A DNA stretch of 64,000 bases. It comes from Escherichia coli. GTDB lineage: Bacteria; Pseudomonadota; Gammaproteobacteria; Enterobacterales; Enterobacteriaceae. The notes under the pieces were generated by a model. That model had not been told where the DNA came from and did not search any database. It saw only the letters and a list, made by a program, of their open reading frames with translations. The translations under genes and the position numbers were made by a program. Positions 1,251 through 46,121 of this stretch are shown in pieces. The stretch lies in the NCBI RefSeq assembly GCF_030013205.1, contig NZ_CP122648.1. One strand, written 5' to 3'. Each line of letters opens with the position of its first letter. The stretch's first letter is position 1.

Positions 1251-1277
1251 TTATCGGCCTGAATTGCGCAAAGTTTA
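1251..1277 (-). promoter_or_regulatory. sigma28 (FliA) class 3 promoter for fliD
   Basis: Minus-strand reading gives TAAA-N15-GCCGATAA, a perfect flagellar sigma28 consensus, about 45 nt upstream of the fliD ATG. Confidence 0.7.
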
Positions 1278-1369: not shown

Positions 1370-1396
1370 TAAAGGTTGTTTTACGACAGACGATAA
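1370..1396 (+). promoter_or_regulatory. sigma28 (FliA) class 3 promoter for fliC
   Basis: TAAA at 1370-1373, 15-nt spacer, CGATAA at 1391-1396 (gaCGATAA vs GCCGATAA consensus), about 75 nt upstream of fliC ATG. Confidence 0.7.
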
Positions 1397-3303: not shown

Positions 3304-3403
3304 GCCTGATGCGCTGCGCTTATCAGGCCTACAAGTTGAATTGCAATTTATTGAATTTGCACATTTTTGTAGGCCAGATAAGGCGTTTACGCCGCATCCG
3401 GCA
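3304..3403. repeat. REP/BIME element (two inverted REP units) in fliC 3' region
   Basis: gcctgatgcgctgcgcttatcaggcctac ... gtaggccagataaggcgtttacgccgcatccggca, typical E. coli REP palindromes. Confidence 0.75.
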
Positions 3404-13249: not shown

Positions 13250-13325
<76 letters not shown>

Positions 13326-13379
13326 GTTTAAAAGACATCGGCGTCAAGCGGATGTCTGGCTGAAAGGCCTGAAGAATTT

Positions 13380-13453
13380 GGCGCGTTAACAAAGCGGTTA
13401 TGTAGCGGATTGCAAATCCGTCTAGTCCGGTTCGACTCCGGAACGCGCCTCCA
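13380..13453 (+). tRNA. cysT: tRNA-Cys (anticodon GCA)
   Basis: ggcgcgttaacaaagcggttatgtagcggattGCAaatccgtctagtccggttcgactccggaacgcgcctcca. Confidence 0.95.
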
Positions 13454-13465
13454 CTTTCTTCCCGA

Positions 13466-13552
13466 GCCCGGATGGTGGAATCGGTAGACACAAGGGATTT
13501 AAAATCCCTCGGCGTTCGCGCTGTGCGGGTTCAAGTCCCGCTCCGGGTACCA
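13466..13552 (+). tRNA. leuZ: tRNA-Leu (anticodon TAA), long variable arm
   Basis: gcccggatggtggaatcggtagacacaagggattTAAaatccctcggcgttcgcgctgtgcgggttcaagtcccgctccgggtacca. Confidence 0.95.
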
Positions 13553-25604: not shown

Positions 25605-26384
25605 AACCTGTTCCTTATTCTGTGAACTTCAGGTGACATTAAAGCTTTACTCCTAATGGAGAAACGACGCAATCCCAACTCAGTCAAACAGGTAAATATT
25701 AGTCTGATTATTAGTAAAGACAATTAATCAATCACTCTCGGTGATCATATGATTTCAACTGTAATTATAAGAAAATAATGTACTGATTCTCCATATTAAA
25801 CAAGTGGTTAATACATGTAAAACATTTTATTAACATTAAGTTGATTGTTGCCTTTCTTTGTATTTAATTAGTTTGTTGTGCGGTAAATGTCTGTTTAAAA
25901 ATAGCTTATCTGGTATTGCATTAAAGCAATTATTTATGGCAGATGATTATTTACGGTGAGTTATTTTAACTGTGCGCAACATCCCATTTCGATTATTCCT
26001 GTTTCATTTTTGCTTGCTAGAGTCGCGAAAAACTTTTTAACAGATTGAAATACACCCAAAACAAAAGTATGACTTATACATTTATGTTAAGTAATTGAGC
26101 GTTTTGTGTGATCTGTATCACACATTATTGAAAATCGCAGCCCCCCTCCGTTGTATGTGAGTGTAGTGACGAGTAAAGTTGCGTCGATTTAGGAAAAATC
26201 TTAGATAAGTGTAAAGAACCCCTTCTATTTGTGAGGACTTATTAAATCCAAAAAAGGGGCTCTGCCTGTTGCAGCTTATCGCAACTATTCTAATGCTAAT
26301 TATTTTTTACCGGGGCTTCCCGGCGACATCACGGGGTGCGGTGAGACCGCATAAAAATAAAGTTGGTTATTCTGGGTGGGAATA
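25605..26384 (+). promoter_or_regulatory. flhDC upstream regulatory region and long 5' leader (AT-rich), no IS element present
   Basis: 780-bp AT-rich intergenic segment preceding flhD; by established knowledge this region carries the class 1 promoter and multiple regulator and sRNA target sites; individual sites not resolved here. Confidence 0.5.
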
Positions 26385-26737: not shown

Positions 26738-27316
26738 ATGAGTGAAAAAAGCATTGTTCAGGAAGCGCGGGATATTCAGCTGGCAATGGAATTGATCACC
26801 CTTGGCGCTCGTTTGCAGATGCTGGAAAGCGAAACACAGTTAAGTCGCGGACGCCTGATAAAACTCTATAAAGAACTGCGCGGAAGCCCACCGCCGAAAG
26901 GCATGCTGCCATTCTCAACCGACTGGTTTATGACCTGGGAACAAAACGTTCATGCTTCGATGTTCTGTAACGCATGGCAGTTTTTACTGAAAACCGGCTT
27001 GTGTAATGGCGTCGATGCGGTGATCAAAGCCTACCGTTTATACCTTGAACAGTGCCCGCAAGCAGAAGAAGGACCGCTGCTGGCATTAACCCGTGCCTGG
27101 ACATTGGTGCGGTTTGTTGAAAGTGGATTACTGCAACTTTCCAGCTGCAACTGCTGCGGCGGCAATTTTATTACCCACGCTCACCAGCCTGTTGGCAGCT
27201 TTGCCTGCAGCTTATGTCAGCCGCCATCCCGGGCAGTAAAAAGACGTAAACTTTCCCAGAATCCTGCCGATATTATCCCACAACTGCTGGATGAACAGAG
27301 AGTACAGGCTGTTTAA
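26738..27316 (+). CDS. flhC: flagellar master regulator subunit FlhC, 192 aa
   Basis: [70 protein letters not shown]... with C-terminal Cys cluster. Confidence 0.95.
27247..27273 (+). promoter_or_regulatory. sigma28 class 3 promoter of motA-motB-cheA-cheW, located inside the 3' end of flhC
   Basis: TAAA (27247-27250), 15-nt spacer, GCCGATAT (27266-27273); one mismatch to TAAA-N15-GCCGATAA. Confidence 0.6.
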
Positions 27317-31242: not shown

Positions 31243-31746
31243 ATGACCGGTATGACGAATGTAACAAAGCTGGCCAGCGAGCCGTCAGGCCAGGAATTTC
31301 TGGTATTTACCCTTGGTGATGAAGAGTACGGTATTGATATCCTGAAAGTGCAGGAGATCCGTGGCTACGATCAGGTAACACGGATTGCGAACACGCCAGC
31401 GTTTATCAAAGGCGTCACGAATCTGCGCGGCGTTATTGTGCCGATTGTCGACTTACGAATTAAGTTCAGCCAGGTGGATGTGGACTATAACGACAACACG
31501 GTAGTTATCGTCCTGAATTTCGGACAGCGGGTGGTCGGCATCGTGGTTGACGGCGTTTCAGACGTGCTTTCATTGACGGCGGAGCAAATTCGTCCGGCAC
31601 CGGAATTTGCCGTGACGCTTTCAACAGAATATCTCACTGGACTGGGCGCACTGGGCGACCGGATGTTGATTCTGGTGAACATCGAAAAACTGCTGAACAG
31701 CGAAGAGATGGCGCTGTTAGATAGCGCGGCGTCAGAAGTGGCGTAA
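31243..31746 (+). CDS. cheW: chemotaxis coupling protein CheW, 167 aa
   Basis: [72 protein letters not shown]... Confidence 0.95.
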
Positions 31747-31774
31747 TTCTCCCGATTTCCTCAATTGCAATGAA

Positions 31775-31801
31775 CCCGATGACCTGCGCATCGGGTTTTT
31801 T
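31775..31801 (+). terminator. rho-independent terminator after cheW
   Basis: hairpin cccgatg-acctgcg-catcggg followed by ttttttt. Confidence 0.65.
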
Positions 31802-31802
31802 A

Positions 31803-32510
31803 TTGTGCACAGAAAACCCCCAGCTAGGCTGGGGGTTCCGGAAAGCTTTCAGCTTTGAGCCAGTTATTAAAACCCCTTTTGATTTGTTAAAACACCTTGC
31901 GGTCTGGCAACTGCAAGTGTCAAACAAGAAATCAAAAGGGGGTCCCAATGGGGAACGAAAAGAGCTTAGCGCACACCCGATGGAACTGTAAATATCACAT
32001 AGTTTTTGCGCCAAAATACCGAAGACAAGTGTTCTACAGAGAGAAGCGTAGAGCAATAGGCAGTATTTTGAGAAAGCTGTGTGAGTGGAAAAGCGTACGG
32101 ATTCTTGAAGCTGAATGCTGTGCAGATCATATCCATATGCTTGTGGAGATCCCGCCCAAAATGAGCGTATCCGGCTTTATGGGATATCTGAAAGGGAAAA
32201 GCAGTCTGATGCTTTACGAGCAGTTTGGTGATTTGAAATTCAAATACAGGAACAGAGAGTTCTGGTGCAGAGGGTACTACGTCGATACGGTGGGTAAGAA
32301 CACGGCGAAGATACAGGATTACATAAAGCACCAGCTTGAAGAGGATAAAATGGGAGAGCAGTTATCGATTCCCTATCCGGGCAGCCCGTTTACGGGCCGT
32401 AAGTAACGAAGTTGGATGCAAATGTCAGATCGTGTGCGCCTGTTAGGGCGCGGCTGGTAAGAGAGCCTTATAGGCGCATTTGAAAAACCTCCGGCTATGC
32501 CGGAGGATAT
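31803..32510 (+). mobile_element. IS200-like insertion sequence (IS200/IS605 family), about 0.7 kb, boundaries approximate
   Basis: Single tnpA gene flanked by subterminal hairpins (cccccagc-tag-gctggggg at 31817-31835; cctccggc-tat-gccggagg at 32488-32506); extra DNA between the cheW terminator and the tar promoter; no terminal inverted repeats or target duplication seen, as expected for this family. Confidence 0.65.
31948..32406 (+). CDS. tnpA: IS200-type Y1 (HuH) transposase TnpA, 152 aa
   Basis: MGNEKSLAHTRWNCKYHIVFAPKYRRQVFY...CCADHIHMLVEIPPKMSVSGFMGYLKGKSS...RNREFWCRGYYVDTVGKN: HuH motif (HIH) and catalytic Tyr region typical of IS200 TnpA; ORF-track start at 31897 trimmed. Confidence 0.92.
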   Translation: MGNEKSLAHTRWNCKYHIVFAPKYRRQVFYREKRRAIGSILRKLCEWKSVRILEAECCADHIHMLVEIPPKMSVSGFMGYLKGKSSLMLYEQFGDLKFKYRNREFWCRGYYVDTVGKNTAKIQDYIKHQLEEDKMGEQLSIPYPGSPFTGRK

Positions 32511-32543
32511 TTATTTCAGTTTCGCGGCGGGTGGCATCAGCAA

Positions 32544-32570
32544 TAAAGTTTCCCCCTTCCTTGCCGATAA
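32544..32570 (+). promoter_or_regulatory. sigma28 class 3 promoter of tar-tap-cheRBYZ
   Basis: Perfect TAAA-N15-GCCGATAA (TAAA 32544-32547; GCCGATAA 32563-32570), about 30 nt upstream of tar ATG and downstream of the IS200-like element. Confidence 0.75.
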
Positions 32571-32601: not shown

Positions 32602-34263
32602 ATGATTAACCGTATCCGCGTAGTCACGCTGTTGGTAATGGTGCTGGGGGTATTCGCACTGTTACAGCTTATTTCCGGCAGTCTGTTTTTTTCTTCCCTT
32701 CACCATAGCCAGAAGAGCTTTGTGGTTTCCAATCAATTACGGGAACAGCAGGGCGAGCTGACGTCAACCTGGGATTTAATGCTGCAAACGCGCATTAACC
32801 TGAGTCGTTCAGCGGTGCGGATGATGATGGATTCCTCCAATCAACAAAGTAACGCCAAAGTTGAATTGCTCGATAGCGCCAGGAAAACATTGGCCCAGGC
32901 CGCGACGCATTATAAAAAATTCAAAAGCATGGCACCGTTACCTGAAATGGTCGCTACCAGTCGTAATATTGATGAAAAATATAAAAACTATCACACAGCG
33001 TTAACTGAACTGATTGATTATCTTGATTATGGCAATACTGGAGCTTATTTCGCTCAGCCAACCCAGGGAATGCAAAATGCAATGGGCGAAGCGTTTGCTC
33101 AGTACGCCCTCAGCAGTGAAAAACTGTATCGCGATATCGTCACTGACAACGCAGATGATTACCGATTTGCCCAGTGGCAACTGGCGGTTATCGCGCTGGT
33201 GGTGGTATTGATTCTGCTGGTGGCGTGGTACGGCATTCGCCGTATGTTGCTTACACCGCTGGCAAAAATTATTGCTCACATTCGCGAAATCGCCAGTGGT
33301 AACCTGGCGAATACCCTGACCATTGACGGGCGCAGTGAAATGGGCGACCTGGCGCAGAGCGTTTCACATATGCAACGCTCTTTGACTGACACCGTCACTC
33401 ATGTGCGTGAAGGTTCAGATGCCATCTATGCCGGTACCCGTGAAATTGCGGCGGGCAACACCGATCTTTCCTCCCGTACTGAACAGCAGGCATCTGCGCT
33501 GGAAGAAACTGCCGCCAGCATGGAGCAGCTCACCGCGACAGTGAAGCAAAACGCCGATAACGCCCGCCAGGCCTCGCAACTGGCGCAAAGTGCCTCCGAT
33601 ACTGCCCAGCACGGCGGAAAAGTAGTGGATGGTGTAGTGAAAACGATGCATGAGATCGCCGATAGTTCGAAGAAAATTGCCGACATTATCAGCGTTATCG
33701 ATGGTATTGCCTTCCAGACTAATATCCTCGCGTTGAATGCCGCTGTTGAAGCCGCGCGTGCGGGTGAACAGGGCCGTGGTTTTGCCGTGGTGGCGGGCGA
33801 AGTGCGTAATCTTGCCAGTCGCAGCGCCCAGGCGGCAAAAGAGATCAAAGCCCTCATTGAAGACTCCGTCTCGCGCGTTGATACCGGTTCGGTGCTGGTC
33901 GAAAGCGCCGGGGAAACAATGAACAATATCGTCAATGCTGTCACTCGCGTGACTGACATTATGGGCGAGATTGCATCGGCATCGGATGAACAGAGCCGTG
34001 GCATCGATCAAGTCGCATTGGCGGTTTCGGAAATGGATCGCGTCACGCAACAGAACGCATCGCTGGTGCAGGAATCAGCTGCCGCCGCAGCTGCGCTGGA
34101 AGAACAGGCCAGTCGTTTAACGCAAGCGGTTTCCGCGTTTCGTCTGGCAGCCAGCCCACTCACCAATAAACCGCAAACACCATCCCGTCCTGCCAGTGAG
34201 CAACCACCGGCACAGCCACGACTGCGAATTACTGAACAAGATCCAAACTGGGAAACATTTTGA
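32602..34263 (+). CDS. tar: methyl-accepting chemotaxis protein II Tar (aspartate/maltose receptor), 553 aa
   Basis: [60 protein letters not shown]...; HAMP and conserved MCP signalling domain; ORF-track upstream extension trimmed. Confidence 0.95.
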
Positions 34264-45285: not shown

Positions 45286-46041
<756 letters not shown>

Positions 46042-46087
46042 TTTTTACCGTTGCATCATGTCGCCCAATATGATGCTTGCTCGTACC

Positions 46088-46121
46088 AGGCCCCTGCAAT
46101 TTCAACAGGGGCCTTTTTTTA
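46088..46121 (+). terminator. rho-independent terminator after cutC
   Basis: aggcccctg-caatttcaa-caggggcct followed by ttttttt. Confidence 0.7.

Follow-up and report, generated by a model that had tools for sequence, protein, structure and literature searches.

An intact IS200C element in the cheW-tar spacer of Escherichia coli and its probable placement by target preference behind the cheW terminator

The window, by which the whole analyzed stretch of 64,000 nucleotides is meant, carries two chemotaxis operons, motAB-cheAW and tar-tap-cheRBYZ, next to each other on the + strand. It is 99.997% identical to positions 2143726-2207725 of E. coli ETEC4079 (NZ_CP122643.1; pig faeces, Belgium), the only two differences being a T8/T7 homopolymer upstream of yecH (15854) and a C/A exchange in mepM (63400). 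The spacer between cheW and tar measures 855 bp, compared with 144 bp in K-12 MG1655, and is thus extended by 711 bp. A first-pass annotation, made on the sequence alone, had predicted about 0.7 kb of extra DNA at a place where K-12 has a short gap, and the K-12 site is indeed empty. The main features of the locus are the following.

31243-31746, + strand: coding sequence of cheW, the last gene of the motAB-cheAW operon (ORF list; RefSeq annotation of ETEC4079).
31772-31804, + strand: intrinsic terminator of cheW, native host sequence and target of the insertion, composed of a hairpin at 31772-31798 (core CCCGATG/CATCGGG) followed by TTTTTTATT ending at 31804 (terminator scan; RNA fold -17.1 kcal/mol, z -3.7).
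31805-32515, + strand: IS200C, 711 bp (K-12 empty site; second insertion shifted by 3 bp; 711-bp copies with 100% identity elsewhere).
31948-32406, + strand: tnpA, encoding a Y1/HUH transposase of 152 amino acids with the HUH motif H61-I62-H63 and the conserved tyrosine Y125 (Pfam, NCBIfam, solved structures, RefSeq).
32544-32570, + strand: sigma-28 (FliA) promoter of tar-tap-cheRBYZ, TAAAGTTT-N11-GCCGATAA (pattern search; K-12 comparison).
32602-34263, + strand: coding sequence of tar, with the ATG at 32602 (ORF list; RefSeq annotation of ETEC4079; K-12 comparison).

Elsewhere in the window, the small RNA MicL is found at 45813-46120 (+ strand, 368 bits), which is inside cutC according to the ETEC4079 annotation; ES036/CssrF lies at 3325-3366 (- strand) between the flagellin gene and fliA, and a tRNA Gly-Cys-Leu cluster occupies 13250-13549 (+ strand). 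The uspC-flhD regulatory spacer (25605-26384) has a length of 780 bp by the gene annotation of ETEC4079; altered motility of K-12 stocks can classically be traced to insertion sequences located upstream of flhD.

The junctions were read directly and with blastn against K-12. At the empty K-12 site, the insertion point falls between CATCGGGTTTTTTATT and TCAATTTCG (also given as between GGGTTTTTTATT and TCAA), while in the window CATCGGGTTTTTTATT is followed by GTGCACAGAAAACCCCC at the left junction and CCGGAGGATATTTATT by TCAGTTTCG at the right junction. Because TTTATT flanks the insert on both sides, the window alone leaves its ends ambiguous by 6 nt. This ambiguity is largely removed by strain HCP4S3_I4, in which IS200C resides in the same orientation 3 bp further to the left, with GGGTTTTTT preceding GTGCACAG at the left junction and GGATATTTATT preceding ATTTCAA at the right one. 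Combination of the two independent junctions fixes either end to within 2 nt (left, 31803-31805; right, 32513-32515), so that the final two T residues on the left may belong to the host or to the element. The coordinates 31805-32515 were adopted, since the stem-loops described below then match the published IS200 coordinates and since the 711-bp unit recurs at 100% identity. Of the coordinates 31803-32510 given in the first-pass annotation, the left one falls within this range and the right one is 3-5 nt short. An assembly artefact is ruled out by the presence of the insertion in four independent complete genomes.

The TTTATT on either side of the insert could also be read as a 6-nt target-site duplication, in which case the element would be a 705-bp unit moved by a classical cut-and-paste mechanism. 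In HCP4S3_I4, however, TTTTTT forms the end of the left flank although ATATTTATT is still found at the right end, which leaves no duplication to be drawn there, and ATATTTATT likewise terminates 11 out of 11 other copies, irrespective of the sequence on their left. Further evidence comes from Yersinia pestis NCTC5923, where the left-end hairpins of head-to-tail copies of the related element IS1541 are 710 bp apart (2660 and 3370 in locus L080, 12604 and 13314 in L082; likewise in L079) and the right end of one copy, consisting of the hairpin plus ATATTTATT, abuts the left end of the next with zero extra bases (blastn). Judging from these sequences, this arrangement is consistent with the right end itself serving as target. 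A 6-bp duplication is therefore rejected on the HCP4S3_I4 junction and the ends of the 11 other copies, its probability being close to nil, and from the K-12 empty site together with the 3-bp-shifted insertion it follows that IS200C made no target-site duplication.

The transposase assignment of the first-pass annotation, an IS200-type Y1/HUH protein, held in protein profile searches: the 152-amino acid product of tnpA gave 4.4e-38 with Pfam Y1_Tnp (PF01797; model positions 2-121 of 121) and 147.7 bits with NCBIfam transpos_IS200 (NF033573), for which the cut-off is 55. It also matches the solved TnpA structures 2ec2, 2a6m (3.9e-19) and 2xm3 (1.9e-16) from Sulfolobus, ISHp608 and ISDra2. In the alignments with 2ec2 and 2f4f, H61-I62-H63 coincides with the DHIH motif and Y125 with the tyrosine of KKYIEEQ; catalysis by these residues is predicted. 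An identical protein, WP_000526135.1, is annotated at the cheW-tar locus of ETEC4079 and of strain PT62 and carries the RefSeq/PGAP label "IS200/IS605-like element IS200C family transposase." By sequence, the insert is thus an intact IS200C, named according to this label, and belongs to the IS200 group of the IS200/IS605 family; its identity as a named and widespread element had escaped the earlier reading, which saw a plain IS200-family element. Within its 711 bp, tnpA is the sole ORF with database support, and tnpB is absent. An ORF of 121 amino acids runs antisense to tnpA at 31966-32331, and a longer version of tnpA with a TTG start begins at 31897; RefSeq annotates only the tnpA coding sequence, beginning at the ATG at 31948.

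Folding located the GC-rich subterminal hairpins that had been noticed near both ends, and with them the regulatory RNA elements of the IS200 group.

31815-31837, + strand: left-end hairpin AACCCCCAGC-TAG-GCTGGGGGTT (fold -18.7 kcal/mol; Rfam STnc490 model positions 1-23).
31815-31938, + strand: full-length match to Rfam STnc490 (RF01405), 146.4 bits at a gathering score of 56.
31873-31941, + strand: stem-loop in the 5'UTR of tnpA, pairing the Shine-Dalgarno sequence AAAGGGGG (fold -40.2 kcal/mol, z -3.5; within the STnc490 match).
32488-32515, + strand: right end, made up of the hairpin CCTCCGG-CTATG-CCGGAGG (32488-32506) and ATATTTATT (terminator scan, fold).

If nucleotide 1 is set at 31805, the left hairpin spans nt 11-33 and the 5'UTR stem nt 69-137 of the element. 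In the 707-bp IS200 of Salmonella, a terminator is located at nt 12-34, the tnpA start near nt 40, and the stem sequestering the Shine-Dalgarno sequence at nt 69-138, accompanied by the antisense RNA art200, formerly STnc490 (Ellis et al. 2015, PMC4513863). Since the folds fall at these published coordinates, the modelled anatomy is that of a complete IS200. The Salmonella left-end hairpin is a bidirectional rho-independent terminator blocking transcription into the element, and tnpA of Salmonella IS200 has a promoter that is inherently weak, along with a blocked ribosome site (PMC4513863). From the STnc490 region, a 5'tnpA RNA is produced and, from the opposite strand, the antisense art200 RNA (PMC4513863, PMC5435999). 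By analogy, the 5'UTR stem at 31873-31941 would repress translation of tnpA through pairing of the Shine-Dalgarno sequence. The hairpin at 31815-31837 is presumed to be the one bound by the transposase, and the earlier suggestion that it could add to termination after cheW agrees with the role of its Salmonella counterpart.

The ends of the element, beginning with GTGCACAG and finishing with ATATTTATT, are not inverted copies of each other, and terminal inverted repeats are thus absent. The right-end sequence is invariant in the 11 other copies, with variable sequence beyond it. It resembles a terminator on both strands, and it resembles the target sites of IS200C. According to the terminator scan, the right-end hairpin followed by ATATTTATTT has the appearance of a modest terminator; a weak native terminator is mentioned for the element in bioRxiv 2024.06.26.600842.

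The host signals on both sides of the element were left intact as far as their sequences are concerned. The terminator of cheW is also present at the empty K-12 site, and in the window its hairpin and TTTTTTATT are kept up to the junction. The promoter of tar begins approximately 28-29 nt downstream of the right end of IS200C and is identical to that of K-12 except for one spacer base, while the stretch between the element and the promoter differs from K-12 in a single change (32519, G here and A in K-12). A pattern search for sigma-28 promoters with one mismatch allowed gave four matches in the 64-kb window, compared with 0.47 expected by chance, which makes the motif meaningful here. The matches other than the tar promoter are:

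1251-1277 (- strand), 1370-1396 (+ strand) and 27247-27273 (+ strand): upstream of fliD, of the flagellin gene (fliC-type) and of motA, which is the pattern to be expected from the flagellar regulon.

K-12 comparison and pattern search thus confirm in the sequence what had been stated initially, namely, that the insertion sits between the cheW terminator and the sigma-28 promoter of tar with both signals intact. Transcripts from cheW would meet the native terminator and subsequently the left-end terminator of IS200C. The element itself would be insulated by its bidirectional left-end terminator, the weak promoter, the structured 5'UTR together with the antisense RNA, and the right-end hairpin, and the tar promoter, being FliA-dependent, would be self-sufficient. 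With the cheW terminator and the tar promoter untouched and the element insulated in this way, the insertion would most likely be neutral for chemotaxis, and no change is expected. Some read-through from the weak tnpA promoter into tar may occur.

One native feature of the spacer did not survive. The Rfam candidate small RNA C0465, situated on the opposite strand of the native cheW-tar spacer, is cut in two by IS200C, a consequence of the insertion that the first-pass annotation had missed.

31768-31805, - strand: 3' half of C0465, model positions 39-76 (Rfam, 39.8 bits).
32481-32554, - strand: 5' half of C0465, of which 32517-32554 is the native part (Rfam, 65.8 bits at a gathering score of 40).

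In the match at 32481-32554, the right-end hairpin of IS200C replaces the lost terminator of C0465, and it is because of this substitution that one half still scores above the gathering threshold. C0465 has disappeared from the annotation of K-12 in its current record. When it was over-expressed, neither biofilm nor motility nor fimbriae were affected (PMC4606813). The loss of this doubtful small RNA candidate is thus unlikely to matter.

IS200C is a common element in a rarely occupied site. Copies with at least 80% coverage are present in at least 2063 of 5426 complete E. coli genomes, at up to 35 places per genome and also on plasmids; the chromosome of ETEC4079 alone has about 20 such places. 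Between cheW and tar, the element is found in four of the 5426 complete genomes, which are ETEC4079, PT62 and LP5-1 (both pigeon isolates), and HCP4S3_I4, the site being empty in more than 99.9%. The junction of HCP4S3_I4, shifted by 3 bp, marks this insertion as an independent event by sequence, so that the site has been hit at least twice. In PT62, the junction is that of the window. The difference amounts to about 1.5% in the flanks (with four changes within 55 nt on the left, at 31753-31783, and one 4 nt to the right, at 32519) and to 0.4% in the element, which makes a third independent hit likely.

These data also bear on the question whether the copy in the window might be a dormant relic that is unable to move and represents an old, fixed feature of the lineage instead of a recent transposition. 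IS200 is almost immobile in the laboratory (PMC4513863; bioRxiv 2024.06.26.600842), which would fit such a relic. Yet the copy has retained its ORF, HUH motif, tyrosine, and both ends in intact form, copies with 100% identity over all 711 bp exist at other sites and in other strains, and neither the multiplicity of the element on the ETEC4079 chromosome nor the almost universally empty cheW-tar site would be expected of a fixed remnant. A relic is accordingly considered unlikely.

The position of IS200C directly behind a terminator finds its counterpart at its other sites. Among the E. coli copies whose flanks were read, all 11 that were delimited measure 711 bp and are immediately preceded by a GC-rich hairpin and a T-rich run, as exemplified by the left flanks at htpG, where CATCCGGCATTTTTCTT precedes GTGCAC, and at ybhL, where GTGCAC follows GCCGGGATTTTTTTT; one further copy (LR-31, L128) was left out of the 11, as it did not match the right-end pattern used. 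In 9 of these 11 other copies, the hairpin is located 3' of a gene end, with the gene co-oriented with tnpA.

When species-representative genomes were scanned for the left-end hairpin, the exact 22-nt sequence CCCCCAGCTAGGCTGGGGGTTC was found at no fewer than 120 loci of many, very distant taxa, the matches listed including Y. pestis, Vibrio, Brenneria, Mailhella, Oxalobacter, several Bacillota, and other metagenome-assembled genomes. From these, 117 distinct left flanks were compared with random 45-mers from the same loci. Among the matches listed, a perfect stem of 5 bp or more, with its end no further than 12 nt from the junction, is present in 79% of the 117 flanks and in 14% of the controls, a figure that reflects an uneven sample, as the loci are dominated by Y. 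pestis, Vibrio ruber, Mailhella, and one Bacillota MAG. For the same listed flanks, the mean folding energy is -19.1 kcal/mol versus -8.6 kcal/mol in the controls, the last 8 nt contain 6.0 T residues versus 2.0, and the spacing between the end of the stem and the junction has its peak at 3-6 nt. As these values were obtained on surviving copies, selection for harmless intergenic sites contributes to the preference; the fixed distance of 3-6 nt, as read from the flanks, seems hard to explain by selection alone. The hairpin CCCCCAGCTAGGCTGGGGGTTC is also kept in IS200-like elements whose neighboring left-end sequence shares no more than about 78-81% identity with IS200C (within L005-L076; for example, L014-L027 of the Bacillota MAG, L039-L046 and L060-L068 of Mailhella, L005-L008 of Oxalobacter). 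Many of its matches are at contig ends, with the assemblies breaking at these repeats, and binning contamination may account for some of the matches in MAGs.

Taken together, the sequence data point to target choice as the cause of the position of IS200C after the cheW terminator. The first-pass annotation had noted the exact placement but had missed the target preference of the element. If behind a terminator is the normal landing place, the placement is no evidence of selection for working chemotaxis.

A selective explanation would be that the insertion is adaptive and has been kept for a changed dosage of chemotaxis genes, either because transcripts of motAB-cheAW are kept more fully from reading through into tar or because the tnpA promoter supplies tar with weak transcription that is independent of FliA. 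It would accommodate the occurrence of IS200C at one terminator in three diverged backgrounds, at two positions 3 bp apart and in constant orientation, as well as the facts that the left-end hairpin is a documented terminator and that tnpA reads toward tar (PMC4513863). The same site and orientation are, however, predicted by a strand-specific structural target, so that recurrence does not require adaptation. Moreover, only 4 of 5426 complete genomes have the insertion, the tar promoter and the cheW terminator are unaltered, and the tnpA promoter is described as intrinsically weak (PMC4513863). An adaptive origin thus appears very unlikely, somewhat more so than the relic discussed above.

By far the most probable scenario is that an intact IS200C inserted, by virtue of its target preference, into the T-run after the cheW terminator, with most likely neutral outcome. 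The Y1/HUH transposase would have moved the element by single-strand "peel-and-paste" transposition, without target duplication, and the landing point would have been the T-run directly following the terminator hairpin. Copies of the IS200 group are almost always situated a few nucleotides behind a GC-rich hairpin with its T-run, a configuration like that of their own right end. For IS608 and ISDra2, insertion into the lagging-strand template is established. The GC skew of the + strand is positive throughout the window (+0.05), and this G-rich strand, which carries the terminator hairpin, the T-run, and the top strand of the element, is accordingly the lagging-strand template and would be the host strand used here.

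The statistical target pattern as such has already been reported, and only a recognition mechanism would be new. Terminator-like stem-loops were reportedly seen by Odaert et al. in 1998 at 8 of 14 IS1541 sites and proposed as hot spots. More recently, terminator-like sequences were described as over-represented just upstream of insertion sequences, most strongly for IS200/IS605 (bioRxiv 10.1101/2025.07.22.666184), and for Yersinia an IS1541 was noted between pheL and pheA (PMC3082878), where it occupies the attenuator terminator of the phe operon, a terminator with a regulatory role. PMC9208149 contains nothing specific on IS200 targets, and a literature search for IS200 at cheW/tar returned no relevant match.

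It is tentatively proposed that the cheW terminator is a recurrent landing site because the hairpin and T-run, when single-stranded, structurally mimic the right end of the element and are recognized as such by the transposase; this may be so, with the chances slightly on the other side. To our knowledge, hairpin recognition at the target is not established for the IS200/IS605 family, the IS608 model comprising short flanking sequence only. If the proposal is true, structural recognition would constitute a built-in "safe harbor" rule operating across phyla, unlike the sequence-based choice of IS608. The insertion itself represents a known element behaving in known fashion, that of settling behind an intrinsic terminator, and its significance is small beyond correct annotation, RefSeq already labeling tnpA at cheW-tar in the near-identical genome. 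The point of some value is the mechanism by which an IS200-group transposase recognizes hairpin and T-run, and the cheW terminator, having been hit more than once, offers a convenient natural test site for the choice of terminator-like targets by IS200-type elements.

Among the closest known systems is the group's type element, the 707-709-bp IS200 of Salmonella enterica, which is alike in its single tnpA, the terminator hairpin at the left end, the stem sequestering the Shine-Dalgarno sequence at matching coordinates, and STnc490/art200 (Rfam match; layout from PMC4513863). Compared with it, the element in the window is the E. coli variant, IS200C in RefSeq, with 711 bp as delimited here. IS1541 of Y. 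pestis and Y. pseudotuberculosis has 87% nucleotide identity to IS200C over the whole 711 bp, an identical left-end hairpin, and the same placement after a hairpin and T-run; it differs in its host, its higher copy number, and the frequent occurrence of head-to-tail copies. IS608 of Helicobacter pylori and ISDra2 of Deinococcus radiodurans have a homologous Y1/HUH TnpA and subterminal hairpins in place of inverted repeats, make no target duplication, and insert 3' of a short specific sequence in fixed orientation, as IS200C does. Unlike IS200C, they carry tnpB, and their targets are plain sequences of 4-5 nt (TTAC and TTGAT, resp.), whereas the sites of IS200C share a hairpin and a T-run. Bacterial class C group II introns settle just downstream of the stem-loops of intrinsic terminators, a "safe" niche that spares host genes. 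Their niche is similar to that of IS200C by analogy only, the machinery being unrelated and consisting of a ribozyme and a reverse transcriptase instead of an HUH transposase.
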